From Enterococcus phage AllMyExes: a DNA stretch of 64,000 nucleotides. This document shows, piece by piece, positions 4,328-59,300 of the stretch; position 1 is the stretch's first letter; each line of letters starts with the position of its first letter. Where the stretch lies: sequence record PV544171.1; one strand, written 5' to 3'. The notes under the pieces were generated by a model, which searched no databases, had not been told where the DNA came from, and saw only the letters and a program-made list of their open reading frames with translations. The position numbers and the translations under genes are program-made.

Positions 4328-4870
4328 CTATTTGTATACTGGTACAGCAAAAGCCCAGTATCTTTCATCAATTTCTTTTATTTCTTGTTCAGTAAATTTG
4401 TTCTTACCCATATTAGGCTTATTTGAGAAGTATACTTCATTATTGTGGGATGTGTCAACCCAAAGATAACAATCTTCTCCTTTATTACCAAGACCAGTAA
4501 ACACGACATGGTAAAGTGGTTCTTTCTCCACCTCGTACCCATCTTTCATTCGTATTAAAGTTTCAATAGGGTTATTCTTACTTTGGTCTAACCAACAATC
4601 GAACTCTGAATCATGTGGGTAGCTATTACCATCTAACATTCTAATTTGTGTAAAAATAGCTAGGTCTAACGCATGTTTATTTTCCTCGTACCATTCCGCA
4701 ACAAACTTTGGCACAATTACTTTTTTAGGTTCGTCTAGTTTCTTTGCTAGCAAAATAGCCGCCTTGATTGCCTCATTGTAGCACTGGCTCCGATTTGATA
4801 ACCCTTGAATGACTGGGACGTGGCTAAACTTTAACTCTTCTAATTTTTTAATCAATTCTTGTTTATTCAT
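4328..4870 (-). CDS. Hypothetical protein, paralog family A (copy 2).
   Basis: AIKAAILLAKKLDEPKKVIVP...EIKEIDERYWAFAV. Confidence 0.6.
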   Translation of the reverse strand: MNKQELIKKLEELKFSHVPVIQGLSNRSQCYNEAIKAAILLAKKLDEPKKVIVPKFVAEWYEENKHALDLAIFTQIRMLDGNSYPHDSEFDCWLDQSKNNPIETLIRMKDGYEVEKEPLYHVVFTGLGNKGEDCYLWVDTSHNNEVYFSNKPNMGKNKFTEQEIKEIDERYWAFAVPVYK

Positions 4871-5071
4871 TTAGTTTCCTTCCTTTCTTTCAATAGCCCA
4901 CTGGCTGAATGCTTGTAAGACTTGCAACTGCGCAATTTCTGTCATGTATCTATAATTTTTATAAACAGGGCTATTCCGATAATCTGGTTTTATAGAATTG
5001 GCTCTCAGTCTCCAAAATAGCTCTATAGGTTCAATATCTGTTAACGTATATTTTTCTTTTAACCAACCCAA
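4871..5071 (-). CDS. Hypothetical protein; start uncertain (TTG, no clear RBS).
   Basis: C-terminal motif AQLQVLQAFSQW is shared with the protein at 5256..5615. Confidence 0.4.
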   Translation of the reverse strand: MGWLKEKYTLTDIEPIELFWRLRANSIKPDYRNSPVYKNYRYMTEIAQLQVLQAFSQWAIERKEGN

Positions 5072-5087
5072 AACAATTTGTTGATTC

Positions 5088-5263
5088 TAACTTAGCTCTA
5101 CTTGGTCTACCTTATCATCAGTGTATTTGAACCAGATTTTCTCATATGTTGTTTGTCCGCCTGTGATTGTTACAAATTCGGCGCTTGGTTGCTCATTTTG
5201 AAATTTTTCTAGTTGTTCTTCGTAATGTATATCCCCAACATCAAATTCTTTAAATTTAATCAT
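5088..5263 (-). CDS. Small hypothetical protein, about 58 aa, not in the ORF track.
   Basis: ATG at 5263 preceded by AGGGAGAG; overlaps the stop of the upstream gene. Confidence 0.4.
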
Positions 5264-5615
5264 TGTACTCTCCCTGTTCTAAAAACCAATCAGTAAATGC
5301 TTGAATAACTTGCGCTTCCTCCGTTACTGATAAAGAGTAATATGCCTCTTCTGTTTTAGGGTCTTCATAGGTCTCCCCAATACGTTCGAGCGCCTCAAAT
5401 AAGGAATCTTTACTACAGTAACCTACTTTTAACCATTCAAATACCTGTTTCTGATTTTTATTCAGTTCTGGCTTTTTAACTGCCTCTACTGCAGTCTTAT
5501 ACGCTATTTTTAAAAGGTCTCCTTCAAAACTATTAGGGAAATTAATTTCACCATTTGCTTCCATATACATATAACAAACTCTATCAATTATTTCGTTATA
5601 TCTTTGTCTACTCAT
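5256..5615 (-). CDS. Hypothetical protein.
   Basis: 119 aa; motif AQVIQAFTDWF is paralogous to the protein at 4871..5071. Confidence 0.55.
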   Translation of the reverse strand: MSRQRYNEIIDRVCYMYMEANGEINFPNSFEGDLLKIAYKTAVEAVKKPELNKNQKQVFEWLKVGYCSKDSLFEALERIGETYEDPKTEEAYYSLSVTEEAQVIQAFTDWFLEQGEYND

Positions 5616-5776
5616 TCACTATCCCTCCTCGTCCTCTACGTCACCCCAACCAAAGCTACAGTAGGAAGAGAACACGTCTCTAGCTACTTCGTCTATCTCC
5701 TCATTCGTAGCATTATCGGGTACTTCTACTGTCTCTACTTCACCAATACCTGCCCAAGTTGTCTCAATATATACAT

Positions 5777-6319
5777 TTATTTTTCGCATAGTTTAATACC
5801 TAAGACTACATAGTCGTCTTTCTGTGCATAATCGGTGATATAAGTAACTTCTACTTTAATAAACTCTCCTGTATACGAACCACATGTGTACTCATTTAAT
5901 AAAAGAATATCTCCCACATGGTATTGTCTATCATTTTTACGTATTTCAAATAGTTTTCTACCTTCCTTAACTGCTTTAAAGTACGTAGGTGCAATCTTGA
6001 GGTTATGGGTAACTTCTAATTTACTAACTAAATCAAAAATGATAGTGTTTAATTCGTTACCCTCTACCTGATGATTCAATTTTTGTAAATTTATTGATAT
6101 TACAGTATGCCTACCTCCTCTACTCCCATAAAGGTTATTCTGTTGGTCTCTATATTCCTCTGAATCAATAACTAAGTTTCTTCTGTTATGCTTAGTAAGT
6201 CTTTCCTTCTCCGTCATTGCCTGTGCTAGTCCATTTATTGTTTTAGATACTTTTACTTCTCCATTTACAATAACTTGTACTAGGTATCTGTTGTCCTTTG
6301 TTGCAAACTTATTATCCAT
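5777..6319 (-). CDS. Two-domain protein with a C-terminal ASCH/PUA-like domain resembling DUF3850.
   Basis: C-terminus PTYFKAVKEGRKLFEIRKNDRQYHVGDILLLNEY...GEFIKVEVTYI matches the DUF3850/ASCH signature as I remember it (YFeav..G.KtFEIRkNDR.f.vGD.L.L.E). Confidence 0.45.
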   Translation of the reverse strand: MDNKFATKDNRYLVQVIVNGEVKVSKTINGLAQAMTEKERLTKHNRRNLVIDSEEYRDQQNNLYGSRGGRHTVISINLQKLNHQVEGNELNTIIFDLVSKLEVTHNLKIAPTYFKAVKEGRKLFEIRKNDRQYHVGDILLLNEYTCGSYTGEFIKVEVTYITDYAQKDDYVVLGIKLCEK

Positions 6320-6321
6320 AA

Positions 6322-6786
6322 TTAGTATCTCTCTTTCATAATTTTAATTGACCAGTTATCATTATTACTGAACACCCGCTCTAGGTCATTCAATGAGTTG
6401 GTATCTACAATTTCCTTTTTTAGTTTTCTATCTGAACTAATATTACCAAATCGTTTAAGGAATCTTTGTTTAAAGTGGGCATAACCCATATAGTCAAAGG
6501 TAATAACGTGTTCTTTACCAAATATACCCCGCTCTCTTAACTTAATCTCTACACTCTCATAAGAGCTATCTACTTTCATAAAATTATTTAGAAGAGTGTG
6601 CAAATCAATACAAATAGATGCCCCTGCACTACCGCCTATAAGTATATATTTAGGGCACTTTATATCGGGATAACAAGGGTCATCTAATTCATACCACATA
6701 TTATTTACGTCTACCCCATACCATACACTATTCACATCTACTGATACTCTTTCTGTCTTAAATGGTTTTATGCAAGTATACTTCAT
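6322..6786 (-). CDS. Hypothetical protein.
   Basis: 154-aa ORF. Confidence 0.5.
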   Translation of the reverse strand: MKYTCIKPFKTERVSVDVNSVWYGVDVNNMWYELDDPCYPDIKCPKYILIGGSAGASICIDLHTLLNNFMKVDSSYESVEIKLRERGIFGKEHVITFDYMGYAHFKQRFLKRFGNISSDRKLKKEIVDTNSLNDLERVFSNNDNWSIKIMKERY

Positions 6787-7253
6787 TGTCTCTCCTCCAA
6801 ATCGTCTAATACATCTTCTAATGTTGTGACAACCCCCTGCAAATAGCCCAGTTCATGCCACCCATACCCTCTCTTATCTTGCTCTAACAAATTATTAATT
6901 CTTTTTGTTTTACGTTTAATTTGACGGTTATATCTTCTTTTTAGTCCCTCTTCAAAGGTCACTACCTTTTTTGCTTCCTCTATATCTTTTAATAATTGGT
7001 CTAGCCCATCCCCATCAGTACCATAGCTATACACTAGCGCTTTCTCGTCCTTATAGGTAGTTACCCCTAATGATTGGTATACATACTTCTTACTGGGGAC
7101 AAATACAAGGGTAATGGGTCTGTACAATTGAGGTATAAGACAGTCTTCTGATAACCCACCAAAATCTGTTTTAGAAGCTACCTTCTCTACCACGTACCTC
7201 ATATCTTCCATACTTAACGACTTAATACATAAAATATATCTGTTAATGACCAT
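6783..7253 (-). CDS. Hypothetical protein.
   Basis: 156 aa, overlapping stop/start with the protein at 6322..6786. Confidence 0.5.
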   Translation of the reverse strand: MVINRYILCIKSLSMEDMRYVVEKVASKTDFGGLSEDCLIPQLYRPITLVFVPSKKYVYQSLGVTTYKDEKALVYSYGTDGDGLDQLLKDIEEAKKVVTFEEGLKRRYNRQIKRKTKRINNLLEQDKRGYGWHELGYLQGVVTTLEDVLDDLEERQ

Positions 7254-7268
7254 TTCCTTTAGCTCCTC

Positions 7269-7469
7269 CTACACCCAAAATAGTTTTCGACTCTCTGTTG
7301 GTTTAAAATATTCCAATTCTCGTGAAGTAATACTTTTTCCAATAATTGCATAGGGGGAGACTCCAACAATTTCATAAATCTTATACTGACCTTCTGCCCA
7401 CTCTTCTTTTAAAAAGTTCTTAGATTCTGCTATACTAAACACATCGTCCACAAGCCTAACTTTTTCCAT
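7269..7469 (-). CDS. Hypothetical protein.
   Basis: ORF downstream of the promoter at 7529-7557. Confidence 0.5.
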   Translation of the reverse strand: MEKVRLVDDVFSIAESKNFLKEEWAEGQYKIYEIVGVSPYAIIGKSITSRELEYFKPTESRKLFWV

Positions 7470-7528
7470 CTGTTAAACCTTCTTTCACTTTATATATTAA
7501 AAAAATAAATCTAGCTATCTACAAATAC

Positions 7529-7557
7529 ATTGTATCATCAGCTAGATTAAAAGTCAA
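7529..7557 (-). promoter_or_regulatory. Sigma-A-like promoter: TTGACT, 17-bp spacer, TACAAT.
   Basis: Minus strand reads gtgTTGACTtttaatctagctgatgaTACAAT; the spacer contains one arm of a 9-bp hairpin. Confidence 0.55.
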
Positions 7558-7581
7558 CACTTTATATTTAATTATTTTATA

Positions 7582-7947
7582 TTACAATAGTTCTTTATCT
7601 AAAGTTGTTTTAGGGATAGCCCATATTGTAGTGTAACGAACCCCTTTATGATTACCTGTAACTAATACGAACGTTACCGTGTCTAGCTTAGTACCGAGTA
7701 CAGATGCTAGTAGTTCGTGGTCTTCTTTGCTAATTGGTACTTCAAAATCAAGTTCTCCAAGCTCTACCACAAAGTTATTCGCTCTAATTCCCATAAAGTA
7801 TTCATCATTACGTTTTACATGGAATACATTCTTCGTATGAAAACTTTGCATAACAATATTTGCAAAATAGCTGTTATCTCTAGCTACAATAAATCTATCT
7901 ACATAGATAGCCTCTTTGCTGAGTAGTTCTTCAATGCAGTTACTCAT
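7582..7947 (-). CDS. Hypothetical protein.
   Basis: 121-aa ORF. Confidence 0.55.
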   Translation of the reverse strand: MSNCIEELLSKEAIYVDRFIVARDNSYFANIVMQSFHTKNVFHVKRNDEYFMGIRANNFVVELGELDFEVPISKEDHELLASVLGTKLDTVTFVLVTGNHKGVRYTTIWAIPKTTLDKELL

Positions 7948-8123
7948 AACATATTCTCCTCCTCTTCTAATAGTAGCTCTGATACGTAAATTTCCATCAT
8001 TAGACTTTGTTCAATCTCGTCTAGTAATAAATGCATAGCACACAAGCCACACAACATTTCATCTAAATAAAAATCACCACATGTCTCCTCTAATGGTACT
8101 TGACACATTAAACACTCTATCAT
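7944..8123 (-). CDS. Small Cys-rich (zinc-ribbon-like) protein, 59 aa, not in the ORF track.
   Basis: ATG at 8123 preceded by GGAGGG; MIECLMCQVPLEETCGDF...CGLCAMH; its TGA overlaps the next ATG. Confidence 0.4.
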   Translation of the reverse strand: MIECLMCQVPLEETCGDFYLDEMLCGLCAMHLLLDEIEQSLMMEIYVSELLLEEEENML

Positions 8124-8136
8124 TGTACAGCCCTCC

Positions 8137-8655
8137 TTAATTTAAGTTTTCTCTAACTTCTGTTAGCACCTCTCCTAATAGATTAAGTCCTTCCCATTTA
8201 CTCATATCACGAGAGCGTGGGTCTGATTCACGTAACCCTATTCCCCATACTTTATCAAAAGGTGATGCCTCTGCAAACTTGGTTCCTTTAGGGATGGATA
8301 GCATAAAGTTACGTAAACTATCATTTTGTGTGAATTTATAAGTATTTCCATCTAAAACGATTGATTTACGATGCTTTACCCACAAGTCTTCTTCAAAATT
8401 TTTAACTTGTCTACCTAAACGTTTAGCATCTTTTGGGCTCTCTGTTTTTAAAATTCTTTTTGCTGTATCGACATCATTAAAAAGCATTGCTTTACGTACC
8501 ATCATGTAGTGTTCTGCTGTCGGGAAAATAATATCTTCTCCTAAACCCTCAATAGGTGCAGTGAACTGTGACGGGTACCACTGTGACAAGCACTCTTTTC
8601 CTATTTTATTACGTTTGCTTGGAGTATGCCCCCAAAATAAAATATATTTACTCAT
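8137..8655 (-). CDS. NADAR-family (YbiA/DUF1768-like) protein.
   Basis: The translation matches the NADAR pattern: FW.....SQW....F..........AEHYMM..KA..F.D......IL.T..P...K.LGR.V..F....W......IV......KF.QN..L...L..T....L.EASP.D..WGIG. Confidence 0.6.
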   Translation of the reverse strand: MSKYILFWGHTPSKRNKIGKECLSQWYPSQFTAPIEGLGEDIIFPTAEHYMMVRKAMLFNDVDTAKRILKTESPKDAKRLGRQVKNFEEDLWVKHRKSIVLDGNTYKFTQNDSLRNFMLSIPKGTKFAEASPFDKVWGIGLRESDPRSRDMSKWEGLNLLGEVLTEVRENLN

Positions 8656-28842: not shown

Positions 28843-28924
28843 TGGAGAGTGATGGAGTCGCACCACCCGAGCCTAAGCAACAGATTTACAGTCTGCTCCG
28901 CTACTACTTACGGAATAACTCTCC
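28843..28924 (-). tRNA. tRNA-Tyr (GTA), type II with a long variable arm.
   Basis: Acceptor GGAGAGT/ACTCTCC, anticodon loop CTGTAAA, variable arm of about 13 nt. Confidence 0.6.
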
Positions 28925-29609: not shown

Positions 29610-29767
29610 GGTTGTACTACCAAGGTTACCTCTAAAAGGCTAAACTCGTGTCTGGTAGGGAGCCATACCTTACATGGATTGCAAGGAACCTAACCTCAGT
29701 AGCACCTTTTACTATTAAGGGTTTCTGATTTAACGTTTTCCCTAGACCGTACCTTAACAGTAATACT

Positions 29768-29862
29768 GGTGAGAGGATTTGAACCCCTCTTACCTACAAG
29801 CCTCCGACAAGCGCTATGGGAAACAAGCGGTGCATTAACCATAACTATGCTAACCAGTACAC
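29768..29862 (-). tRNA. Anomalous tRNA-like element, about 95 nt, anticodon arm unresolved; possibly a pseudo-tRNA or type-II tRNA.
   Basis: Good T-arm (AGGGG-TTCAAAT-CCTCT), acceptor-like ACTGGTT/CACCAGT and D-arm (GCAT...GG...ATGC), but I could not fold the central 40 nt into a standard anticodon arm. It contains three GCTTGT repeats. Confidence 0.35.
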
Positions 29863-31377: not shown

Positions 31378-32109
31378 TATATTTTTTATGAGCTTTTAAT
31401 AACTCAAAACTTAATATAATAGGGCTTTTACTCCTGCTTCATGCACACTCACTGCATTCGGTCACACACCCAGAGAGGCTGAACTATCGGGAGCTACCCA
31501 ATAGCTTCTCTCTGCTTTTAATGTATGGTCTAGCACGGTGGCTAACAACGTTCACCTAAACATTCAGCATTAAATAGTATTGTTATAAGTTCTTCTTATA
31601 TCATATATTTTGTAAGCTGACTTAGGCTACTTGTACCAAGGTCTCTTGTTAAACCCATATTTCTATGGTTCTCGTCAAAGGGAGTCTTTTGAGGTTTCTA
31701 AGGTCTGCCAAGTTTCTCACGCTTCCACCTAACTTAGATTCTTTTCCACAGGAACGTCTATTATATCCCCCAAGAGTCTTGTACCTTACAATCCATGTAC
31801 ACTCCACATAACGCTTAACTGATACTAGCTTTTACTAGTAGTTACTCTTATGTCACCATAAGACATACCTGCTACCTAAAACACTATCGCACTCTAGGCT
31901 ACATTCAGAATCACGCCACGTTATCCTAGCAAGCTGTTCAAACTTTCTGCACTAGGTTCTATTATATTAAGTTTTCAATTATCAAAAGCAGTTTTTCTTT
32001 ACTATTTAATAATAGCACAACCTCTATTATTTTGTCAACTACTTTTTTTAGAGAGGGTGCCCCTAATTTTATATAGGGGCAAGAGATATTAAACATAGCT
32101 GAGCTATGT

Positions 32110-32165
32110 AAAAGCTAATGTAGGAATTGAACCTACTTAATGTAAGCAACACCAGTTTAGCTTAT
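32110..32165 (-). ncRNA. Truncated tRNA-like element with acceptor and T-arm only.
   Basis: Reverse complement AGCTAAA...GTAGG-TTCAATT-CCTAC-ATTAGCT; no D or anticodon arm. Confidence 0.3.
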
Positions 32166-32194
32166 AAGCATTGTTTGCAAAGTCCATGCTATGC

Positions 32195-32258
32195 ACTCAG
32201 TAGGAATCGAACCTATTGCCGAAGGTACCAAACTACCCTGAGTGCTCCTATAGATATA
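32195..32258 (-). ncRNA. Truncated tRNA-like element with acceptor, one internal hairpin and T-arm.
   Basis: Reverse complement GCACTCA-G-GGTAGTTTGGTACC...TAGG-TTCGATT-CCTA-C-TGAGTGC, about 62 nt. Confidence 0.3.
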
Positions 32259-32430
32259 TTATACCACATAACGAGATATTAATTTTTTTTGGTGATATAG
32301 TATATCTATATTTTTTAAAATTTTAGAAATACCTTTGATACATTCCGGTTATCCAACGTATGAATATATAATATCATGTTATTCTGATTGTGTCAATAAC
32401 TTTTTTACATTTTTTTTTATAATTGTGTAA

Positions 32431-32727
32431 TGTCCTATTTCTTTTTTTCTGATTCCTTATATTTATAATATATACTATATAGTACTATATATATTAATTA
32501 CTATTAGATATTATATATAGATAATAAGAATCTAGGAAATTTAAAATAGGACATTCTAATGCTGACTCAGTTACAATAAACTTATGGTGGCTACCTTTTT
32601 ACAAAAATGTCCTATTTCATTTTTTCTATCTCCTTATATTATTATTTATAATATATAGTATTAAGTATTATATATTATTATATATATAGTATATAATATA
32701 AGAAAGACAAAAATTTAAAATAGGACA
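32431..32727. repeat. Two tandem AT-rich direct repeats of about 120 bp with a period of about 177 bp. Each is bounded by the inverted repeat TGTCCTATTT...AAATAGGACA and filled with TATATA/ATTATA runs.
   Basis: Unit 1 spans 32431-32553 and unit 2 spans 32608-32727. Both also share tttaaaataggacatt and ttttttct.atc.tccttatat. Confidence 0.75.
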
Positions 32728-32737
32728 TTTTACTTAA

Positions 32738-32768
32738 ACAAAAAAAAAGAGAGCAGTTAAGCCCTCTT
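32738..32768 (-). terminator. Possible rho-independent terminator for the minus-strand gene at 32767..33105.
   Basis: Hairpin agagagc-agttaa-gccctct with one mismatch; 9-nt A-run on the plus-strand left flank. Confidence 0.4.
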
Positions 32769-33105
32769 ATCTTAATGAGAAATAGTTATTAATTGTTCCC
32801 AATCTGACTTCCTCATCTTCTGGTGTTTCATCCTCTGGTTTCGTATACAAGCTAGTGATTCTTTCTGGAACATCTACTACGTTCTCAGTAGCTGTCTGTA
32901 TCTGGAATGCATTTACATAAGTTAACTCAGAATCTCTATCAGCTAGTTTATGAACTGGAATCATTGGCAACTCTGCACCTTTCATTGCACCATTTACAAT
33001 TGACATTGCATCATTAGTTGTTACACCGAGTCTTCTAGGGAACACAGAATATGTCCCAGATGTTAATGAAACCTCTACAACTTTCTCTCTTTTAGGGTAA
33101 TTCAT
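32767..33105 (-). CDS. Hypothetical protein.
   Basis: 112-aa ORF. Confidence 0.5.
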   Translation of the reverse strand: MNYPKREKVVEVSLTSGTYSVFPRRLGVTTNDAMSIVNGAMKGAELPMIPVHKLADRDSELTYVNAFQIQTATENVVDVPERITSLYTKPEDETPEDEEVRLGTINNYFSLR

Positions 33106-33168: not shown

Positions 33169-33513
33169 TTACTTAAACATGCTGAACACGTAAGTGACAA
33201 CTGCTCCTAAGACAATCATAAAAACGTTCTCTACAATATCCCTCTTGTGGTCGAACTCTTTATCGTTTACTCCTTCCAGTGCATCTATAGTTTCTTCCAA
33301 CTTAGTAATCTGGTAGGTTAGGTGTGCATATTTTTCTTCGTGAACAGCAAGTCGCTTATCAAGACTATTGACAATATCTCTCAACTCACTAACCGCACTA
33401 TTCAGTTCTACATTGTCCTGTTTAATGCCCTTCTCGGTTAGCTCTCCATGTTGGAGTTTATCTTCCAGTCGTTGTAGTCTTAAAACAAGGTCATTTACTT
33501 GGTAATCGTTCAT
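33169..33513 (-). CDS. Coiled-coil protein with a C-terminal TM anchor.
   Basis: LRLQRLEDKLQHGELTEKG... heptads; C-terminal VLGAVVTYVFSMF. Confidence 0.5.
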   Translation of the reverse strand: MNDYQVNDLVLRLQRLEDKLQHGELTEKGIKQDNVELNSAVSELRDIVNSLDKRLAVHEEKYAHLTYQITKLEETIDALEGVNDKEFDHKRDIVENVFMIVLGAVVTYVFSMFK

Positions 33514-33547: not shown

Positions 33548-33808
33548 TTAGTCAGATGTAAACCACAGACAGACTAATATACCTATAATAGCGCCTACAG
33601 TGTAGACTATAGGTATATAGTACCCATTAAAAAACAAGTATAGACTACCTATACTAATTCCATAGAGCACGAAAGTGAACTTGTATGATGCCAAAGGGCT
33701 CAGTTCTGCTTGTAGTTTCTTATACTGTAGTGCACGAGTGACATAGTAGGACATCAAGTAAACAAACATTTGTAGTAACAGTACACAGACCAGTGCTGTT
33801 TCATACAT
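33548..33808 (-). CDS. Small membrane protein.
   Basis: Three hydrophobic helices. Confidence 0.5.
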   Translation of the reverse strand: MYETALVCVLLLQMFVYLMSYYVTRALQYKKLQAELSPLASYKFTFVLYGISIGSLYLFFNGYYIPIVYTVGAIIGILVCLWFTSD

Positions 33809-34496: not shown

Positions 34497-34925
34497 ATGG
34501 GTATGGCAGATAGACTTAAAGATAATGCAAAACAAAAAAAGTTAGAAAGAACACCAGAGCAACAACTAAGAGACACATTTAATCAAGCTTCAATAAAGCT
34601 TATCAATCAATTTATGGCTAACGTTACATCAGGTGCTATAGAAGTTGATGATATTGCAGATTTAACAAGGCTATTTCAGATTTATTTACAGGTTAATAAT
34701 ATAAATGATGGAATGCAAGAAGGTACAGGAACTCTACCTGCACTTACATCTGAGCATAAAGACATCATATCTGAAAAGGTTAGCACAGAAAAGATTATTA
34801 AGGACGGTGAAGAAGAGGAGCTAATTTCTCTTGATGAGTTAGCCAGTCTTCCAGATGACCAACTTGAGGAAGTCTTAGTTAACAGAGAGCTACAGATGAA
34901 CAGAGAGAACGAGGTGACCTTCTAA
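34497..34925 (+). CDS. Hypothetical acidic protein; a candidate small terminase subunit by position only.
   Basis: 142 aa directly upstream of terL exon 1. Confidence 0.3.
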   Translation: MGMADRLKDNAKQKKLERTPEQQLRDTFNQASIKLINQFMANVTSGAIEVDDIADLTRLFQIYLQVNNINDGMQEGTGTLPALTSEHKDIISEKVSTEKIIKDGEEEELISLDELASLPDDQLEEVLVNRELQMNRENEVTF

Positions 34926-35290
34926 TGACGACAAAAGCACAACATATAGCTAAAATGGCTAAAGAGATGTATGGTACAGATAAAATTACAACGGAGCAGT
35001 TAGCTTATATAACAGATATGCTGACCCCATCAACGTACCTATTGAGAAATCACTCTGTGCGTAATCACCCAATAACTTTTATTATATCAGGAAGGGATGC
35101 AACAAAAGCACAGGCACATCGACCTTGGCAACCAAAGATAATAAATGACCAACATAGGGATAAAGCAATAATAAAGAGTCGTCAGCTCGGGCTAAGTGAA
35201 ATGGGGGTTGGCTCTATGCTACAATTCGCAGATACACATAGTTATGATGCTGTTAAATGCTTGTATACATTCCCTAAACTAATTGGGGCT
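34925..35290 (+). CDS. terL: Large terminase subunit, exon 1 (N-terminal ATPase part with a deviant Walker A).
   Basis: KSRQLGLSEMG resembles the lambda-gpA-type deviant Walker A (KSARVGYS) and the T4 gp17 SRQLGKT region. The ORF ends exactly where the conserved intron sequence starts. Confidence 0.6.
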
Positions 35291-36567
35291 TAGGTCAGTA
35301 ATGACCTTTGAAAAATTCTGTTAAACGGGCAAAGCTGAAAGTACACAAAAATAACCAACCTTACTCATTTGTAAGGAGGAATAAGCTGATAAGAGAGCCT
35401 AAGTCCTTAAAGGATAGAGGTAATCCCGTGCTAAATCAAGCGTAAGCTTGTAAATGCCTAACGACTAAAATTTATAGTTTACTTGACCAAGATAGTAAGC
35501 TATAATAAGAGAACTTGCAATATAAACTCTGATATTAAAAATAAGGAGGTGAGTCATTGACTAAGAGGAAAACTAATGAAGAATACTTAAAAGAAGTAAA
35601 TGAATTAACTAAAGGAGAATACGTACCAATAACACCTTATATAAACTCCGCTACAAAATTGAAAATGGAGCATAAAGCATGTGGTACCATTTGGGAAGTT
35701 AAACCAAATAATTTTAAAACAGGGACACGATGTCCGAAGTGTGCTGAGCTAGCTAAAACAAAGACTACTGAAAAGTTTAGGGAAGAAGTAAAGAAATTAA
35801 CTAAAGGAACCTTAGAACTAAAGGGTGAATATTTTGGCTGTGATACACATACGGAAGTTCTTTGTACGAAGCATAAACTAACAATTTCAGTGAGACCTAC
35901 AAGCATAATTAGAGGTAAAAAAGTATGTCCTAAATGTAATGCAGAGTACCTTAGTACGTGTCAGAGAAAAGACCAAAAGTTATTTGAGAAACAATTAGCA
36001 CACAAACATAATGGTCGAATAATCTCGTTAGAACCATATGTAAATACACATACGAAAATAAAATTTAAATGCACAGCTTGCTGTAGTGAGTTCAAGTCTG
36101 AGCCAAACTCAGTATTGAGAATAAGTGGTTGCCCTTGGTGCAAACAGTCTAAAGGAGAGCTACTTATAGCAGACGTACTAACTAAATTAGGAATTGACTT
36201 TGAAACACAGAAAACTTTCCCAGATTGTACTTTCAAAAGAGAGTTACCATATGACTTTTATATTGAGGAGTATGGAGTGCTGATAGAGTTTGATGGTGAA
36301 CAGCACTACAGACCTATTGAGTTTTTTGGAGGAAAAACCGCATTTGAATACCAAAAAATAAGAGATAACATAAAAAACGATTTTGCTAAGAAAAATGGTT
36401 TTACCTTATTAAGAATACGAGGCAATTTGTCAGAGGATTGCGTTCGTAAAAAGATAGAAAACATATTGCAAGAAGTAAAGCAGAAACCCTATCAGATAGG
36501 GTATGATATAGTCTAGTCCGACTGCTAAGAGCAGTGTTAAAGTATAGTGAAAACTACGGTAGATTCG
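35291..36567 (+). mobile_element. Group I intron 1 in terL, about 1.28 kb, carrying a homing endonuclease ORF. Boundaries are approximate.
   Basis: It shares three near-identical blocks with the second insertion: ctgttaaacgggca; a 48-nt identical core aatcccgtgctaaatcaagcgtaagcttgtaaatgcctaacgactaaa (35422-35469); and a 3' block gatatagtctagtccgactgc.aagagcagt...cggtag.tcg ending in G. The flanking exons keep reading frame. Confidence 0.6.
35557..36516 (+). CDS. Intron-encoded putative homing endonuclease: three N-terminal CxxC zinc-ribbon repeats plus a C-terminal Vsr/DUF559-like PD-(D/E)xK nuclease domain.
   Basis: Repeats of the form T.EEF..EV..LT.GEY...GEY.....K...H..CG..W.V.P..F..G..CP.C, three copies. 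C-terminus GELLIADVLTKLGIDFETQKTFP...YDFYIEEYGVLIEFDGEQHY...GFTLLRI. Paralogous to the ORF at 37524..38462. Confidence 0.6.
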   Translation: MTKRKTNEEYLKEVNELTKGEYVPITPYINSATKLKMEHKACGTIWEVKPNNFKTGTRCPKCAELAKTKTTEKFREEVKKLTKGTLELKGEYFGCDTHTEVLCTKHKLTISVRPTSIIRGKKVCPKCNAEYLSTCQRKDQKLFEKQLAHKHNGRIISLEPYVNTHTKIKFKCTACCSEFKSEPNSVLRISGCPWCKQSKGELLIADVLTKLGIDFETQKTFPDCTFKRELPYDFYIEEYGVLIEFDGEQHYRPIEFFGGKTAFEYQKIRDNIKNDFAKKNGFTLLRIRGNLSEDCVRKKIENILQEVKQKPYQIGYDIV

Positions 36568-37272
36568 ACAAATGAGCAAATGACTAAATTTGTACAGACA
36601 AGGTTAGACCCTGTTTTACAGAATGGGTACTACAGCACAATTGTAGACCAAGAAGTTAACTCATTAAAAGCTAAAAAAATAAGAAATAGCTTTTTGTATT
36701 TTCGTTCAAGCTCAAAACCGGGCGCTGTAGAGGGTGTCGATATTGACTATCTATCTATGGACGAGTATGACCGTGTACCTGCATTAGCAGAGGCTTCTGC
36801 GTTGGAGTCCATGTCTTCCTCACCTTATAAGATAGTTAACAGATGGAGCACCCCAAGTGCCCCAGATATGGGGATACATGGGCTCTTTAAAGGGTCAGAC
36901 CAACATTGGTATTTACATAAATGTGAGAAATGTAATTATTATAACGAAATGAGTTATGATGCATATACACCAGAGGCTCCTGTAGAGAGTAGAGGTAACA
37001 TTCTTTGTGTTAACCCAAAAGGGGTCGATGTTGTTGCTAAAACAGTAGTTGACGGCTCATTCCAGTTTGTTTGTCAAAAGTGTGGAGAACCGTTAGACAG
37101 ATGGTACAACGGTGTATGGGTACCTAAATACCCTGATAGAACAAAAAATGGTCTAGGTACTAGAGGATATATGATTTCCCAAATGAACGCAGTATGGGTA
37201 ACTGCCGACCAGTTAAAGACTAAAGAACTTCAATCATTATCTAAACAAGCCTTTTATAACTATACTCTGGGT
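36568..37272 (+). CDS. terL: Large terminase subunit, exon 2 (Walker B region and linker).
   Basis: IRNSFLYF...VDIDYLSMDEYDRVP matches the T4 gp17 RGNSFAMIYIDECAFIP Walker B region. The in-frame ORF opens just after the conserved intron 3' end. Confidence 0.55.
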
Positions 37273-38557
37273 GAATAACGCCCCTTCAACTGGAAACAGT
37301 TGTCGAAAACTCTGTTAAACGGGCATAGGAAAATAACCAATATCCTGATAAGAGACCCTGCCTCCTGAAAAGGAAAGAGGGAATCCCGTGCTAAATCAAG
37401 CGTAAGCTTGTAAATGCCTAACGACTAAATTTCTAGGTAGCTAACCAAATGGGGTTAGTGAGAACTAGATAAGAACTACAAAACATTCTAAGTATGCTAT
37501 TATAATTACTGAGAGGTGATTAGATGGCAAAGAAACAAACCACTGAAACATTTACAGCTCGGGTAGCTGAACTTACTAACAATGAATATACAGTTGTTGG
37601 TGAATATGTAAATAACAAAACAAAGATAGCTATAACTCACACAACGTGTAACACCACTTACCTAGTTAAACCAAAAGGTTTTTTGGATGGTAACCGATGC
37701 CCTCATTGTAGAAATAAGCTACGAGGAGCTAAGCAAAAGACACAAGAGCAGTTCGCAGAAGAGGTTACAAACTTAACGGATAATGAATACATCGTTGTAG
37801 GAGAGTATACAGGAGCTACTAACAAAGTAGCAATCCAACATAGAATATGTGGTAACTCATGGAGAGTTTCTCCGAATAGTTTTTTATCCCGAGGAACACG
37901 ATGCCCTACGTGCGTAAGGAATACGACAGCACAGGAGCAGAGGTACTCTACAGAGCAGTTTATCAAAAAATTAGAGGAACGCTTTCCGAAAGAATACACA
38001 TTATTATCTGAGTACATGGGTAGCAAGAAAAAAGTTTTGGTACGTCACAACCGCTGTGGTAATGAGTGGGAAATCAAAGCAAGTCATTTGCTACACCATA
38101 ATATGTGTCCTAGGTGTAAGTCATCGAGAGGTGAAGCATTGATTCGGAAGTATCTAACAAATATAGGTTTGGAATTTACAGAACAGCAAACCTTTCCTAA
38201 TTTAGAACTTAAAAAACCATTATCCTATGACTTTTATATACCTAGTCAGCAGTTGCTGATTGAATATCAAGGTATACAACACTATGAACCAATAGCTCAC
38301 TTCGGTGGAGCTGAACGGTTTAAACTTCAACAGGAAAGCGATAAAAGAAAACGAAAATACGCAAGTGAGCATGGGTTGCTATTAGTGGAAGTACCTTACT
38401 CACTCGATACAATAGAAAAGGTATCGGCATACTTAGAAAAGGAAATCAAATTTGTAGTGTAAAGCAGAGCAACCTAAACCAAAAAGTAGGTTGATGATAT
38501 AGTCTAGTCCGACTGCCAAGAGCAGTAACAAAATACTACGAAAGTAGCGGTAGCTCG
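37273..38557 (+). mobile_element. Group I intron 2 in terL, about 1.29 kb, carrying a homing endonuclease ORF. Boundaries are approximate.
   Basis: Same conserved 5', core (37382-37429) and 3' (38496-38557) blocks as intron 1. Confidence 0.6.
37524..38462 (+). CDS. Intron-encoded putative homing endonuclease, paralog of the ORF at 35557..36516.
   Basis: Same tri-repeat zinc-ribbon plus DUF559/Vsr-like architecture (GEALIRKYLTNIGLEFTEQQTFP...YDFYIPSQQLLIEYQGIQHY...GLLLVEV). Confidence 0.6.
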   Translation: MAKKQTTETFTARVAELTNNEYTVVGEYVNNKTKIAITHTTCNTTYLVKPKGFLDGNRCPHCRNKLRGAKQKTQEQFAEEVTNLTDNEYIVVGEYTGATNKVAIQHRICGNSWRVSPNSFLSRGTRCPTCVRNTTAQEQRYSTEQFIKKLEERFPKEYTLLSEYMGSKKKVLVRHNRCGNEWEIKASHLLHHNMCPRCKSSRGEALIRKYLTNIGLEFTEQQTFPNLELKKPLSYDFYIPSQQLLIEYQGIQHYEPIAHFGGAERFKLQQESDKRKRKYASEHGLLLVEVPYSLDTIEKVSAYLEKEIKFVV

Positions 38558-39337
38558 TATCCTTACGCAGACTTGAAATTAACTGTTAACGACTCTGACG
38601 TTGATAGCCATAAGAGAAACTATTTAGTAGAACCTGCTAAAGACAGAGGTGACTATAAATTTATATCTGTTGGTATTGACTGGGGTAACAGACATTGGGT
38701 ATCTATACATGGTGTTAAAACAAATGGTACGGTAGATTTGATAAAACTTTTTTCTGTGGGTAAGTCCAACCCGCTAGACCCTAATGCAATAGATGTAGAC
38801 ATACAGTCTATAAAATTACAGCTAGCTCCTTACAATCCAGATATAATCGTAGCTGACGTAGGGGACTCAGGGGATAAAGTTGCTAAACTTATGCAAATTT
38901 ATGGAAAAGAACGAGTTTTTGGGTGTGTCTACCCATCAACCCCTAAATCTACTGGTAACCTAGTACCTACTTGGAGCCCACAAGCAAATAAAGTATCCGC
39001 TGACAAGTTAATGCAGAATAAACGTTACATTAACAAGATGAAAGAAGGAGAAATAGGTTACTACTCAAAACCAGATACAGAGCTTAATTTATATAAAGAG
39101 CACTGGAAGAATGTTGTTATACGTGATATTGAGGACGAAAAGACATCGACAGGTTTTAGACAAATTATCGGCAGAAAAGGTGATGACCACTACTCACAAG
39201 CAAGCGTTTATTCCATGTTAGGGTATGAGTACCTAATGAATGTATTTACAGGAGTAAAAGAGTATGGATTTGACTCTGATTGGGTGTCAACTCAATTAGC
39301 ACCTACGAAACCTGATATATTTACAGAATTTGTATAG
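38558..39337 (+). CDS. terL: Large terminase subunit, exon 3 (RNase-H-like nuclease domain).
   Basis: YKFISVGIDWGNRHWVSIHGV resembles the T4 gp17 [21 protein letters not shown] nuclease motif I, with downstream acidic motifs. Confidence 0.55.
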   Translation, partial: YPYADLKLTVNDSDVDSHKRNYLVEPAKDRGDYKFISVGIDWGNRHWVSIHGVKTNGTVDLIKLFSVGKSNPLDPNAIDVDIQSIKLQLAPYNPDIIVADVGDSGDKVAKLMQIYGKERVFGCVYPSTPKSTGNLVPTWSPQANKVSADKLMQNKRYINKMKEGEIGYYSKPDTELNLYKEHWKNVVIRDIEDEKTSTGFRQIIGRKGDDHYSQASVYSMLGYEYLMNVFTGVKEYGFDSDWVSTQLAPTKPDIFTEFV

Positions 39338-39403
39338 GTAGATTGCCTTATTTAGTTTTAGTCAAGCTGAATAAGGCATTTTGTATTGTTTGATATATAT
39401 TTT

Positions 39404-52638: not shown

Positions 52639-54348
52639 ATGGCTGTAGAACAATTCCCAAGAAAAAAAGTATCACGTCCACATACTGAGATTACCGTAGA
52701 CACAAGCGGTATTGGTGGGGCATCAAGTAGCTCTGACAAAACATTAATGTTAGTCGGCTCTGCTAAAGGCGGTAAACCAGATACTGTTTATCGTTTCCGT
52801 AATTATCAACAAGCTAAACAAGTACTACGTAGTGGAGATTTGCTAGATGCTATTGAGTTAGCATGGAATGCATCTGACGTTAATACCGCATCAGCAGGAG
52901 ACATTTTAGCAGTTCGTGTTGAAGATGCTAAAAACGCAACTCTTACAAAAGGTGGTTTAACATTTGCTTCAACAATTTATGGGGTAGATGCAAATGAAAT
53001 TCAAGTAGCATTAGAAGACAACAATTTAACACACACAAAAAGATTGACTGTTGCATTTTCTAAAGATGGTTATAAGAAAGTTTTCGATAACTTAGGTAAA
53101 ATTTTCTCTATCCAATATAAAGGTAGTGAAGCTCAAGCCAACTTTACAATTGCACAAGATAAAATCAGTAAGAAAGCAACAACATTAACTTTAAATGTAG
53201 GTGCTGAACCAGAAAGTACAACAGAAGTAATGAAGTATGAGTTAGGTCAAGGTGTTTACTCTGAGACAAATGTCTTAGTTAGTGCAATCAATAGTTTACC
53301 AGATTGGGAGGCTAAATTCTTCCCTATAGGTGACAAAAACTTACCTACTGATGCTTTAGAGGCAGTAGACAAAGTAGATGTTAAGACAGAGGCTGTATTC
53401 GTAGGAGCTTTAGCAGGAGACATTGCTAAACAGCTAGAATACAATGACTATGTAACTGTAGCTGTAGATGCTACAAAACCTGTAGAAGACTTTGAATTAA
53501 CAAACTTAACAGGTGGTTCTGACGGAACTGCTCCTGAGTCTTGGGCTAATAAATTCCCATTACTAGCTAATGAAGGTGGTTACTACTTAGTGCCATTAAC
53601 AGATAAACAGGCAGTTCATTCTGAGGCTTTAGCTTTTGTTAAAGACCGTACAGACAATGGTGACCCAATGCGTATTATCGTTGGTGGAGGCACTAATGAA
53701 ACAGTAGAGGAAAGCATTACTCGTGCAACAAACCTACGTGACCCTAGAGCTTCTTTAGTAGGCTTCTCTGGAACTCGTAAAATGGATGACGGACGGTTGC
53801 TTAAATTACCGGGTTACATGATGGCTTCACAAATTGCAGGTATTGCAAGTGGTTTAGAAGTTGGTGAAGCAATCACTTTCAAACACTTCAACGTAACATC
53901 TGTAGACCGTGTATTTGAAAGTAGCCAGTTAGACATGTTAAACGAAAGTGGAGTAATCTCTATCGAGTTTGTACGTAACCGTACTTTAACTGCATTCCGT
54001 GTAGTGCAAGACGTAACTACCTACAATGACAAATCTGACCCAGTTAAAAATGAAATGTCTGTTGGTGAAGCAAACGACTTCTTAGTTTCAGAATTGAAAA
54101 TTGAACTAGATAACAACTTCATCGGAACTAAAGTGATTGACACAAGCGCAAGCTTAATCAAAAACTTTATCCAATCATTCTTAGATAACAAAAAACGTGC
54201 TCGTGAAATCCAAGATTACACACCGGAAGAAGTACAAGTTGTCTTAGAAGGTGACGTGGCATCAATCAGTATGACCGTAATGCCTATCCGTAGCTTGAAT
54301 AAGATTACTGTTCAGTTAGTATACAAACAACAAATCTTAACAGCATAG
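52639..54348 (+). CDS. Tail sheath protein (by size and position).
   Basis: 569 aa immediately upstream of the tube-sized gene. Confidence 0.55.
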   Translation: MAVEQFPRKKVSRPHTEITVDTSGIGGASSSSDKTLMLVGSAKGGKPDTVYRFRNYQQAKQVLRSGDLLDAIELAWNASDVNTASAGDILAVRVEDAKNATLTKGGLTFASTIYGVDANEIQVALEDNNLTHTKRLTVAFSKDGYKKVFDNLGKIFSIQYKGSEAQANFTIAQDKISKKATTLTLNVGAEPESTTEVMKYELGQGVYSETNVLVSAINSLPDWEAKFFPIGDKNLPTDALEAVDKVDVKTEAVFVGALAGDIAKQLEYNDYVTVAVDATKPVEDFELTNLTGGSDGTAPESWANKFPLLANEGGYYLVPLTDKQAVHSEALAFVKDRTDNGDPMRIIVGGGTNETVEESITRATNLRDPRASLVGFSGTRKMDDGRLLKLPGYMMASQIAGIASGLEVGEAITFKHFNVTSVDRVFESSQLDMLNESGVISIEFVRNRTLTAFRVVQDVTTYNDKSDPVKNEMSVGEANDFLVSELKIELDNNFIGTKVIDTSASLIKNFIQSFLDNKKRAREIQDYTPEEVQVVLEGDVASISMTVMPIRSLNKITVQLVYKQQILTA

Positions 54349-54408
54349 AGTGTAGGGGCAGTTGCCCCTCCTCTTACATAATGAATAAAATATAGGAGTG
54401 ATATATAC

Positions 54409-56357: not shown

Positions 56358-59300
56358 GTGGAAATGAGCAACAATTATCGTTTTTATGTTGAGGCAATGA
56401 CTGGGGATGCTGTTGCAAAACTTAATGAAATAGACAAGTTAATGGATAAAATTGATTCAAAGAGTGCAAAGGGCACCCAGAATTTTTTCCATACAAGTCA
56501 GAAAGACATTGATAAAGCTGTTGAGGAAATGCAAAAGCTTATCAAGGCAAAAAAAGAACTAGATAGAGCTTTTGACAATCAGAAGATAAATGCAGAAAGC
56601 ATGGGAGATATGACAGCATATAAACGTGCTGTATCGGATGCAGAAGAACTAACTAGAAGATTTAACAAGACACAAAAAGAATTTCAAAATCATGCTAGAA
56701 TGCAAGCTAACCCTAACTACATAAATGCTAGTACATTAAGGCAACAAAAAGCATTTCGTGATGAACTAACAGAGCAAGAGAGAGCAATAAGAAATATCTC
56801 TAGGGCACAACAGGAGCTAAACAGGGTGAACTCTAGGGTTAACCACCGTGCAAACCAAGCAAGTGCAACAGGAAGAATGACTTACAATCAGTCAGAGAGT
56901 ATGAAGCGTGACCTTAGACGTACTGGTGTATTTGAAAGCCTAGGCGCAGAAAATAAAAGCAGACAGCAAGAGCTACGAGAACGATATAAACAGAGACAAG
57001 AAGAACTAGCAGAGACTAGAAGTAATACAAATTTAGATAGACAAGTTCGTAAGAATAGGGAAACTAGTATTCAGGCTGAGATAAAAGAAATTGAGAAAGA
57101 AATTGAAGCTAGAAAACGCCTAGCAGACTCTATTAAAGAGACTGTAGAGAACTTAAAATCTAAGGAAGCTTCACTAAATGCATCTGATATAAAAGTAGAT
57201 GCTGATAGAAAGAGTATTCGTGGTGTTCTAGCTGAGCGTGCGCCTTCTATATCAATGGCTATGCTAGGAGGTACCGCCGCCGCCATAGGTGGTTTATACG
57301 CAAAAGGAGCAACTGCTAACGCAGGTATGCGTGATGCATCTATTTCTTTAGGACAACGTACAGGTACTAGTGATTTCCGTGCACTAAGAAAAAGTATGCA
57401 AGAGATGGGTATTGAGAAACAGTTAGGCTATAAAGGCGCTGACATGTTACAATTCCAAGAAGATGCATTAAGTAATATTGGGTTTACAAGTAAAGAGGAC
57501 TTAGCAGGAAGTACAAGAGCCTTAGCAGAGGGTTCAAGAGCAGTTCCAGTAGATAATGAGACTTTAAGTGACTTTATGAATAGTCAAATGAAGAGTGGAG
57601 CTATTAGTGGTAGAGACCAAATTAAGAATATTCAAGAAGGTTTCTTGGGTGCTATTCAGCGCTCAGGGATGGCAGGTCGTGAGAAAGAACAACTAGAAGC
57701 TCTTAAAACATTAAGTGAGCAAAGCTTTACTGGTCGTAACGGAAGTAATCAAGAGCTTAAAGAACAAATGGCAATGTTAACAATGCTAAACCAAACAGGT
57801 AAGCGTGCTGTCCAAGGTGAACAAGGAGCACAACTAATGTCAAGTTTATCTGCAGGTATTCAAGGTAGCGTATGGAATAATAAGGCATCTTTACTTTTAG
57901 GTAAAGGGACACAATTCCAAGGACTAGCAGGAATGTACGACTTAAAAGCTATGCAAGAACAAGGAGCAACGCCAGAGAACTTACAGAAAATTATTGGCAG
58001 TGTCCAACAATCAGTTCCCGGTGACGAAAAGTCTCAGAAGTATGCTTTCGGTAGTGCTTTACACGAACTATTCGGTACAGATGCTAAGAATGACCAAATA
58101 GATGCAATTTGGGAGGCTTATGCCAACGGTGGTTTAAGTCAGGATAACGTAGACAGAATAATGAATGAAAGCCAATCTACAGGAAAAGGCAAATACGACA
58201 AGAACATAGAAGACTATGCAAACTCTAAAGAAGGAACCGCTAACCGTTCAGAAGCTGTTACAGAGAAACAAGCTTCACAGATTAACGATATGGGGGACAT
58301 CTTAAGAGAAACTAACTCTAAATTAGGAGCACTTCCTCCTGCGTTATATGCGTTAGGAGCAGGCTTAGGAGCTATGGCTGTTTCACTAGCCACATCAGGC
58401 TCTATTGGTGGTTTATCTAGTTTAATCAAAAAAGGAACTCGTTCTACTTTTAGTACAGGTGGAGGAGTAACTGCAGGGGGCGGATTTTTAAAATCAGCTA
58501 AAGAAGCATTCTCTGCAGGTAAAGGCTCTGGCGGATGGTTCCAAGGTATTAAAAATGTAGGTAGTGTAGCTAAGGACTCCGCAATGGGTGTCGGAGCTAA
58601 GGCTGTTGAAGGAGCAAAAGGACTAAAAGGTGCCGGAATGGGCAGTAAGGTTCTTGGTGGCTTAGGAAAAGCAGGTAAATTCCTAGGCAAAGTTGCAACC
58701 CCTCTAGCGATAGGTTCCTCTCTACTAGATATTGCAACCGCAGATGATAAAACAAAGGCGGTAGGGGAGAGTGTTGGAGCTATTGGTGGAGGTATCGGAG
58801 GAGCTAAGTTAGGGGCAATGATTGGTACATTTATTGCACCCGGTCTTGGTACAGGTATCGGAGGAGCTATTGGTGGAGGTATCGGCGCCATAGGAGGTAC
58901 TCTAGCAGGTTCTAAACTAGGCGGTAAATTTGTTGATGGTGTTCGTAAATTCTTCGGAGGAGAAGAAGCTTATGCGGAAGAAGCAGACTTAACTGCAGGG
59001 CAAGATGTTGCTTCTGGTCAAGAGAGTAAATCAGGAGTACAAGAAGCCAGAGACACGGCTAACAAACGAGTCCTATCTGAGAAAACACGTGCAGAGAATA
59101 ACGCAGAAGAGTCCGCCAATCTCTCTATCTATTCTAAGTTATTAGATAGAGCCCAACGTATACTAAACCAAGCAAAAAATCAAAACGGTATATTCGGTAA
59201 CTCAGGGAGCTCTAAAGATTCTTCTGATGGAATGGGTTCAGATGCTTCTAGTAAAGACTTTGGAGGAGACTGGGAGAAAGCCATTAGGCAAGCATCTAAG

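Follow-up and report, generated by a model that had tools for sequence, protein, structure and literature searches.

The 64,000-nt stretch of Enterococcus phage AllMyExes DNA analyzed here (sequence record PV544171.1; hereafter the window) is 99–99.8% identical to EF24C-like Enterococcus phages of the genus Kochikohdavirus (Brockvirinae, Herelleviridae), with Riverwalk as the closest match. It carries two AT-rich units (32429–32555 and 32606–32729) that form a real, conserved, non-coding DNA element, for which a role as a replication origin is a candidate explanation. Transcription around this element proceeds on the minus strand. Read from right to left, three small minus-strand open reading frames (ORFs; 33548–33808, 33169–33513, and 32767–33105) are followed by an intrinsic terminator, unit 2, unit 1, a sigma-A promoter, two tRNA-like mini elements, a second promoter, a ROOL RNA gene, and tRNA genes. 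The terminator of ORF 32767–33105 maps to 32747–32768 on the minus strand, with an 8-bp stem that includes 4 GC pairs and a T-run; it is predicted to halt transcription of this ORF before the units are reached, and the same terminator also precedes the element of the Schiekvirus EFDG1. Located 32 bp beyond unit 1, the near-consensus sigma-A promoter (32396–32368, minus strand; TTGACA-17-TATTAT with TG) points away from the units, toward the tRNA-like elements, ROOL, and the tRNAs. The ROOL RNA is full length (31404–31980, minus strand; Rfam RF03087, 265 bits), has a near-consensus promoter of its own (32038–32009, minus strand), and is followed in the array by seven or eight tRNA genes. On the opposite side, the plus-strand terminase genes begin ~1.8 kb rightward of the units, and the strand switch lies near 33.8–33.9 kb, ~1.1 kb from the element. 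The initial annotation had correctly placed the repeat between the tRNA array and the last small minus-strand genes, near this switch, and had rightly called the region ORF-free, as no ORF of at least 40 amino acids was found within 32283–32766.

The two units, delimited by sequence reading and a repeat search, share an architecture in which inverted arms of ~34 bp surround an AT-rich spacer, and an nhmmer arm profile matched both arms of each. Unit 1 is 127 nt long and unit 2 is 124 nt long; they are 78% identical over their full length, with a start-to-start distance of 177 nt. Rather than the tandem repeat originally described, they are direct copies placed around a unique 50-bp spacer (32556–32605, from sequence reading), not a head-to-tail array, and Tandem Repeats Finder (TRF) reported only low-complexity TA-rich micro-repeats within the cores. 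Each unit ends in a perfect inverted repeat (AATGTCCTATTT / AAATAGGACATT) of 12 bp, not the 11 bp first given, within imperfect arms that reach ~34 bp. That the repeat element is real, as had been claimed, is evident from the occurrence of the 12-mer AATGTCCTATTT exactly four times in the window against 0.00 expected (100 dinucleotide-preserving shuffles), these four copies being the two inverted pairs that bound the units. Searching the window for AATGTCCTATTT with up to two mismatches revealed no further site that stands out. As the initial annotation had also noted, this is not a CRISPR array, since it comprises no more than two ~125-nt units with internal inversion, whereas a CRISPR array calls for three or more short direct repeats (23–47 nt) and unique spacers that are similar in size.

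The exact 12-mer, termed Box A, marks the outer end of each arm, at 32429–32440 (plus strand) and, inverted, at 32544–32555 (minus strand) in unit 1, and at 32606–32617 (plus strand) and, inverted, at 32718–32729 (minus strand) in unit 2. A second motif, Box B (TCCTTATAT), occupies 32454–32462 (plus strand) in the left arm of unit 1, where ~22 bp separate its start from that of the Box A core TGTCC, and 32631–32639 (plus strand) in that of unit 2, as placed by sequence and arm alignment. Its right-arm counterparts, assigned from sequence and alignment, map to 32521–32529 (minus strand), in a degenerate version that reads ATAATAAGA on the plus strand, and to 32696–32703 (minus strand; ATATAAGA on the plus strand). 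Between the arms lie the spacer of unit 1 (32463–32520), a candidate DNA-unwinding segment of ~90% A+T whose folding compared with dinucleotide shuffles gave z = +1.07, and that of unit 2 (32640–32695), with ~95% A+T and z = −0.14. The A+T content amounts to 83.5% in unit 1 and 86.3% in unit 2, rising to 90–95% in the cores, and the lowest-GC 300 bp of the window map to 32402–32701 (17.3% GC). The larger region 32281–32760, initially put at more than 85% AT, has in fact 80.8% A+T. No Rfam family matched the units at E ≤ 1. Candidate internal sigma-A promoters and a mini-ORF in the arms (AAGGAG...ATG, unit 2) were rejected because they are not kept between copies, and known host operator motifs (DnaA box, IHF, CtsR, and others) gave either no convincing match or a match within the variable patch of the arms described below.

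The anatomy of the arms was surveyed in 20 distinct full-length copies from the window, complete relatives, and viral and metagenome contigs, which together provide 25 unique arms. From outside to inside, an arm consists of Box A (TGTCCTATTT), a T-tract, a variable patch (positions 19–24), and Box B (CCTTATAT). Box A, the T-tract (15–17), and Box B (26–30) are each at least 92% conserved, the T-tract being invariant. The copies were picked by the presence of Box A, so that conservation at arm positions 1–10 is partly built in, and the finding of an intact Box A in every aligned Enterococcus- and Listeria-phage copy is to be read with the same selection in mind. Columns 25–32, by contrast, were not used in picking copies and are 76–96% conserved, with 92–96% at the Box B positions 26–30. 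The distance from the start of Box A to the CTCC of Box B is 22 bp, that is, two helical turns, in Enterococcus and Listeria phages alike. Among the surveyed copies, the spacer between the arms spans 48–69 bp with 86–98% A+T, and total unit length varies between 112 and 133 bp without following the helical period.

These features are kept as sequence rather than as structure. At the 11 variable positions, arms of the same element agree at 4.1 on average, versus 4.9 for arms of unrelated elements, and the 34-pair arm helix is 82.6% paired compared with 80.5% after column shuffling (alignment A1, 11 sequences), the pairs of the variable patch being unpaired in most A1 sequences. Whole units folded as RNA do better than shuffles (z = −3.7 to −6.7), whereas spacers or cores taken by themselves do no better than dinucleotide shuffles (mean z = +0.1), and folding is better for the sense strand in three copies and for the antisense strand in three, with no consistent bias. 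The whole-unit folding signal stems entirely from the conserved inverted boxes. Absence of arm covariation, shuffle-like folding of the spacer, and lack of strand bias thus argue for inverted boxes at the DNA level and not for an RNA hairpin. Judged from these alignments, selection appears to act on two inverted sequence boxes and on spacer composition, not on a hairpin, which in turn points to protein recognition of double-stranded DNA at the boxes.

Persistence of the repeat in close relatives, on which the initial annotation had staked its proposal, was found throughout, with both units kept at 93–99% identity in 34/34 Kochikohdavirus-type records. The nhmmer arm profile recovered exactly three elements in a Riverwalk-like genome and exactly three in EFDG1, and no lone arms in either. 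The third element of the Riverwalk-like genome (L031 20981–21101) is degenerate and lies directly upstream of a UvsW-like helicase gene. In EFDG1, nhmmer placed the elements at the syntenic site (54257–54389), 9 nt after the terL stop codon (58441–58567), and just before the helicase operon, 1 nt past a stop codon (104334–104461), and these are the three lowest-GC sites of its whole genome. The helicase-upstream site is therefore filled in both Enterococcus-phage genera, and the operon downstream of it encodes a UvsW-like helicase, a winged-helix protein, and a DnaB-like helicase. In the L007/L216 lineage there are two units at the window's site (site 1) plus one copy after terL, which in L007 is 91% identical to one of the tandem site-1 units and has the opposite orientation; in the L026 lineage, a copy lies between a terminator and the baseplate operon. 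The after-terL copy is thus a feature of Schiekvirus and the L007 lineage, and the window lacks the full element there. Just after its terL the window has a short hairpin, TTGCCTTATTTAG...CTGAATAAGGCA followed by TTTTG (39339–39379, plus strand), whose ends are Box A-like, and which may be a plain terminator or the remnant of a collapsed element. Copies from the same genome are slightly more alike than orthologous copies, so the module can evidently be copied or homogenised within a genome. The order terminator, element, and outward near-consensus promoter was seen in 9/12 loci examined. Outside phages, a search of 185,579 bacterial species genomes returned 16 matches to the two-box pattern, and 0/16 combined an AT-rich core with arm similarity. 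A single Box-A-like site in the tail module (Riverwalk record 78515, EFDG1 98920) was discarded because it is a small terminator of the ordinary kind in which the order of the half-sites is exchanged.

Some observations made alongside these searches are recorded for completeness. The UvsW-like helicase encoded downstream of the third Riverwalk-like copy (L031 21226–24270; Riverwalk record 84226–87270) carries an intein with a LAGLIDADG endonuclease domain. Three metagenome contigs (L155 4773–4883, L172 271–395, and L201 2608–2735) contain iteron-looking inverted arrays, in which a spacer is flanked on either side by two or three GTCCTATTT-type half-sites in tandem, and their neighboring ORFs gave no informative Pfam matches. 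Two identical copies of a different palindromic element, 2.5 kb apart, were found on a contig of a Clostridia metagenome-assembled genome (L222 1740–1852 and L224 4285–4397); their nearly perfect arms extend ~40 nt past the shared box on each side and include the 10-mer TGTCCTATTT, and this palindrome is probably unrelated to the phage element.

The comparison with related phages that had been suggested showed that Listeria and Bacillus phages have the same module at the syntenic position and that Staphylococcus phage K has a related box there. The locus can be followed across the family by its neighbors: ORF 33169–33513 is a dmcA-like gene, a gene found in more than 650 Herelleviridae genomes, and in blastp it matched K gp189 (4e-17) and Bcp1_064 (3e-20), while terS and gp185 orthologues match too. 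In Listeria phage LP-Mix_6.1 (Jasinkavirinae), the syntenic site, ~31 kb into the linear record, consists of a terminator, two tandem units with AT-rich cores, and then the tRNA array. Its units read TTGTCCTATTTAATTTTA ... TAAAATTAAATAGGACA, with Box B as CTCCTATAT, a Box A identical to that of the window, and the same 22-bp spacing between them; in a P100-like Listeria genome, a 17-mer of these units is present only at the syntenic locus. In the Bacillus phages Bcp1, BCP01, and Goe3 (Bastillevirinae), the tRNA array is headed by AT-rich DNA with several Box A copies, both direct and inverted, around it, and an XRE-type regulator gene abuts this Box A array. Homology of the Enterococcus element to the Listeria- and Bacillus-phage boxes is clear. 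Altogether, site 1, which usually holds two units, is filled in at least three subfamilies, between which proteins are 33–53% identical, with Box A unchanged, and a fourth has a related element. From this distribution, the window locus at the head of the tRNA/non-coding-RNA array is the ancestral copy, common to Herelleviridae subfamilies, and the extra copies at other transcription-unit boundaries are a Brockvirinae development.

The fourth subfamily is Twortvirinae, represented by phage K, whose gp190/gp191 gap at ~39.2 kb contains a terminator, two AT-rich units 190 bp apart, and a promoter. Two RNA sequencing studies report that this gap alone is untranscribed and that its GC content is the lowest, propose it as the origin, and read its two direct repeats as origin initiator sites (PMC9241854; PMC11598898); low coverage and 20% GC have likewise been reported for it (PMC8952766). 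The Kayvirus locus and that of the window have the same layout, with plus-strand terS/terL, small genes on the minus strand, among them the dmcA-like one, a terminator, AT-rich repeats, a promoter, and a non-coding RNA/tRNA array. In both phages there are two AT-rich units of ~120 bp, 177 bp apart in the window and 190 bp in phage K, and both the phage K gap and the window units are among the lowest-GC stretches of their genomes (PMC9241854 for K). The ROOL part of this synteny is not claimed, because the phage K lncRNA2 region at the equivalent position was not recognized as ROOL at the Rfam gathering threshold. The phage K units each begin AAAAAGTACGTATTTAGAAAATAAGGAG..CTCCTATTATA, and the related boxes are GTACGTATTT...CTCCTATTAT in phage K and GTCCTATTT...CTCCTTATAT in the window, a resemblance (GTaCgTATTT / CTCCTatTAT, with an indel) too short to score. 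In contrast to the window, the units of phage K repeat in direct orientation, each with a single strong box and no clear inverted partner, the box has an indel and substitutions, and the box-to-box spacing is ~4 bp longer. A scan of ~62 kb of the 148-kb phage K genome turned up the box nowhere but at the syntenic site, so that a single locus in that portion compares with several loci in Brockvirinae; origin function in phage K is itself only predicted. Scanning viral contigs for the phage K box with a 14-mer was abandoned, as chance matches swamped the result, and neither Box A (on either strand) nor the phage K repeat box was found in phage contexts in the literature searched. The element is best filed as the Enterococcus-phage member of a locus that has been proposed, yet not proven, to be the Kayvirus origin.

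On these grounds, the units can be read as a cis-acting DNA element of the replication-origin type, with initiator boxes around an unwinding spacer, a candidate function that we put forward tentatively and to which we give slightly less than an even chance. The easily melted AT-rich segment that an origin calls for is found in the cores and in the lowest-GC 300 bp of the window; repeated sequence-conserved boxes, for which base pairing does not account, stand beside it; and the third copy is directly upstream of the helicase/winged-helix/DnaB-like operon, the window's own copy being ~50 kb off. What stands of the origin or regulatory element initially proposed is therefore a cis DNA element with origin-like architecture, as judged from conserved boxes, a spacer kept in composition only, and synteny with phage K, the origin function itself being inferred. 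The accompanying term iterons was loose: the boxes are indeed repeated, but in this genome solely as inverted pairs.

In the mechanism that we envisage, a phage-encoded sequence-specific protein would bind both arms. The best candidate for this binder is a 542-aa winged-helix protein of the Riverwalk_126/EFDG1 gp084/K gp142 family, whose family-conserved gene (phrog_1098) lies between the UvsW-like and DnaB-like helicase genes; it is encoded outside the window, its N-terminal winged helix gave weak matches only, and no solved homologue of it was found. The spacer would then melt, while the upstream terminator would shield the element from incoming RNA polymerase and the adjacent strong sigma-A promoter, firing outward, would supply negative supercoiling that aids melting. 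Transcriptional activation of oriC and lambda ori is the principle behind such promoter-aided opening. The phage helicase and primase would load on the opened spacer, and the extra Brockvirinae copies would act as secondary origins. On a wider scale, Herelleviridae could share one ancestral replicator, made of inverted Box A/Box B pairs around an unwinding spacer and read by the winged-helix protein, which was copied in Enterococcus phages to new boundaries to give several origins; we regard this extension as possible but rather doubtful. As a variant of the origin reading, the element may be a recombination hotspot that is origin-like by way of cruciform cleavage and recombination-dependent replication.

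Several findings weigh against an origin. Some 50 kb separate the window's own copy from the replication genes, and the extra copies occupy varied transcription-unit boundaries, after terL or, in another lineage, upstream of the baseplate operon. Some copies start 1–9 nt after a stop codon with no separate terminator and may for that reason be transcribed. The slightly greater similarity of same-genome copies than of orthologues, reaching 91% in L007, is what a copying repeat also predicts. GC skew was rejected as an origin indicator, for it only tracks gene orientation and does not shift independently where the elements lie. In phage K the repeats are all direct, and the ~62 kb inspected include no element upstream of its helicase; the assignment of its origin was drawn from AT-richness, repeats, and missing transcripts. 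A study of a P100-like Listeria phage favored another AT-rich locus as the origin and did not single this one out for a lack of transcripts (PMC12282133), which makes origin assignments in these phages conjectural. Literature searches on the origins of EF24C, SPO1, and A511, and on the motif, yielded predictions only, none of them mapped.

Dispersal of the module, with three loci per genome in Brockvirinae, keeps both a regulatory and a selfish explanation alive. The element could be bound by a phage or host protein at a transcription-unit boundary, either insulating the units on its two sides by means of a roadblock or supercoil barrier or acting on the adjacent very strong sigma-A promoter from upstream, to activate it or to shut it off, in a role unrelated to replication. 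Every copy lies between the end of a transcription unit and a near-consensus promoter that fires away from it, the promoter's start ranging from 2 nt within the last box to 63 nt past it; the ancestral copy is upstream of a ROOL/tRNA array, which is the most heavily transcribed kind of region in related phages (PMC11598898; PMC12282133); copies occur at boundaries that have nothing to do with replication genes; a regulator gene of the XRE type adjoins the Box A array of Bacillus phages; and boxes kept as sequence and not as structure would suit any DNA-binding protein. The association with promoters is nonetheless weak evidence, because in compact phage genomes any intergenic element falls between a gene end and a promoter. 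Moreover, the variable distance from element to promoter (−2 to +63 nt, with the two units reaching to ~−360), together with an arm spacing of 112–133 bp that follows no helical periodicity, argues against phased activation or looping, an operator needs no spacer of 55–65 bp with at least 90% A+T at the lowest-GC point of a genome, and the 1–3 sites per 140-kb genome contrast with dozens of similar promoters. We consider a boundary function rather unlikely. Lower still do we rate a selfish or neutrally spreading palindrome, akin to miniature inverted-repeat transposable elements (MITEs) or to repetitive extragenic palindromic (REP) sequences, that would be copied by transposition or recombination and have no function for the phage. 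The units do resemble MITEs and the palindromes of REP sequences and bacterial interspersed mosaic elements (BIMEs) in their ~34-bp terminal inverted repeats and unconstrained core, their length of ~110–135 bp, their intergenic position at the ends of transcription units, and the similarity of same-genome copies, paralogues being closer than orthologues (91% for the oppositely oriented site-2 and site-1b copies of L007). They are also dispersed, their presence varies by lineage (after terL in Schiekvirus and L007 and not in the window, and at a different site in the L026 lineage), and the site-1 copy is present twice in tandem. Unlike such repeats, however, they have no target-site duplication in the flanks of 14 distinct copies and no cognate transposase was found, the 'transposase' gene of EFDG1 being without a Pfam match and without a homologue in the window's lineage. 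There are only about three copies per genome, and the 16 bacterial two-box matches yielded none with AT-rich core and arm similarity. Finally, site 1 is filled with an unchanged Box A in at least three subfamilies and the helicase-upstream site in both Enterococcus-phage genera; positions that stay fixed and filled over such distances imply long-term purifying selection, and a functionless repeat is accordingly quite improbable.

Two further explanations concern the transcript and the packaging machinery. If the units acted as RNA, a long AU-rich hairpin would serve as an unusual terminator or as an RNase III site, as in the T7 and SP82 early mRNAs. This would fit the better-than-shuffled folding of whole units, the location of some copies 1–9 nt after a stop codon with no other terminator, the four or five Ts that follow some copies, and the window's after-terL site, where a short hairpin with Box-A-like ends and TTTT takes the place of the full Schiekvirus element. 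The arms, however, do not covary, the variable patch is mostly unpaired, cores fold as shuffles do, and preferred strands split three versus three; a T-run after the 3′ arm is not conserved, and direct Box A arrays such as those of Bacillus phages are unable to form one hairpin. The syntenic locus of phage K was reported as untranscribed (PMC9241854), and the window units should be poorly transcribed because a canonical terminator lies upstream of them. Regarded simply as intrinsic terminators, the units were rejected, as they have a long, AT-rich stem interrupted by an internal loop and no conserved T-run, and the canonical terminator is a separate one at 32768–32747. An RNA function is hence very unlikely. 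The packaging (pac) site offered by the initial annotation, or a terminal-repeat boundary signal for the terminase encoded ~1.8 kb away, seems scarcely credible. It would agree with units near the terminase genes and with a second Schiekvirus copy directly after terL, but the terminal repeat of phage K is annotated at 1–8486 (by similarity to other K-like phages), whereas its element is at ~39.2 kb, the elements are ~31–32 kb from an end in the linear Listeria-phage and Riverwalk records (~32 kb from the left end in the latter), and another copy lies upstream of the helicase, ~50 kb away.

Origins of comparable design are known elsewhere. In herpes simplex virus (HSV), oriS and oriL have inverted initiator boxes flanking an AT-rich spacer. 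The units are like these origins and like the archaeal oriC with origin recognition box (ORB) repeats, as far as its architecture is outlined in PMC4010727, in that inverted boxes bracket a short near-pure A+T spacer and several origins per genome are possible. The likeness is one of design only: neither sequences nor proteins are homologous, and Orc1/Cdc6 and UL9 homologues are absent here. Origins with initiator boxes and an AT-rich segment also occur in the Bacillus phage SPP1. As another phage of Firmicutes, SPP1 has two dispersed origins, oriL and oriR, one of them beside the replication genes (summarized in PMC13575424). It differs in being an unrelated siphovirus with the initiator G38P and other boxes, which are direct repeats and not inverted pairs.

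Other features of the neighborhood are listed here as observations in their own right. EFDG1 likewise has ROOL (L018 2892–3478, 261 bits). Between the promoter at 32396 and the ROOL gene of the window, the two tRNA-like mini elements (~32110–32170 and 32190–32246, both on the minus strand) have a 7-bp acceptor-like stem and a canonical T-arm (GGTTCGATTCC / GGTTCAATTCC), and the one at 32190–32246 is clearly without an anticodon arm. Neither was called by default ARAGORN or by Rfam, and relaxed ARAGORN settings returned a weak tRNA-Leu(cag) at 32193–32273; they could be tRNA remnants or Y-RNA-like tRNA mimics. Within the array, ARAGORN reported a 97-nt 'tRNA-???' with the four-base anticodon ttcc (29763–29859, minus strand), which the Rfam tRNA model did not match at E ≤ 1 and which may be spurious or an unusual or interrupted tRNA. 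A weak tRNA-Sec-like match (28844–28924, minus strand) scored 29.9 bits (E = 0.011), against a gathering score of 47 bits. On the terminase side, terL (34925–39324, plus strand) is in several pieces with homing-endonuclease-type ORFs between them (e.g., 35557–36516 and 37524–38462), while an undivided ORF of ~611 aa encodes the large terminase in EFDG1 and in the L007 lineage.

Collectively, the origin idea of the initial annotation is the best available explanation of the element, which is not a new kind of thing. SPO1-like myoviruses supply many of the therapeutic phages used against Enterococcus, Staphylococcus, and Listeria, and what was a vague 'AT-rich gap' in their genomes is now a defined module with short conserved boxes. 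This module provides exact coordinates for a function that is unmapped in medically used phages, together with one candidate binding protein. Should the origin reading be true, these would be the first defined origins for Herelleviridae and a case of origins spreading by copying within a virus genome, which would be useful in phage engineering, for example, in replicons that amplify only in infected cells. Should the element prove regulatory or selfish instead, it would still be among the very few non-coding sequences conserved across these subfamilies.

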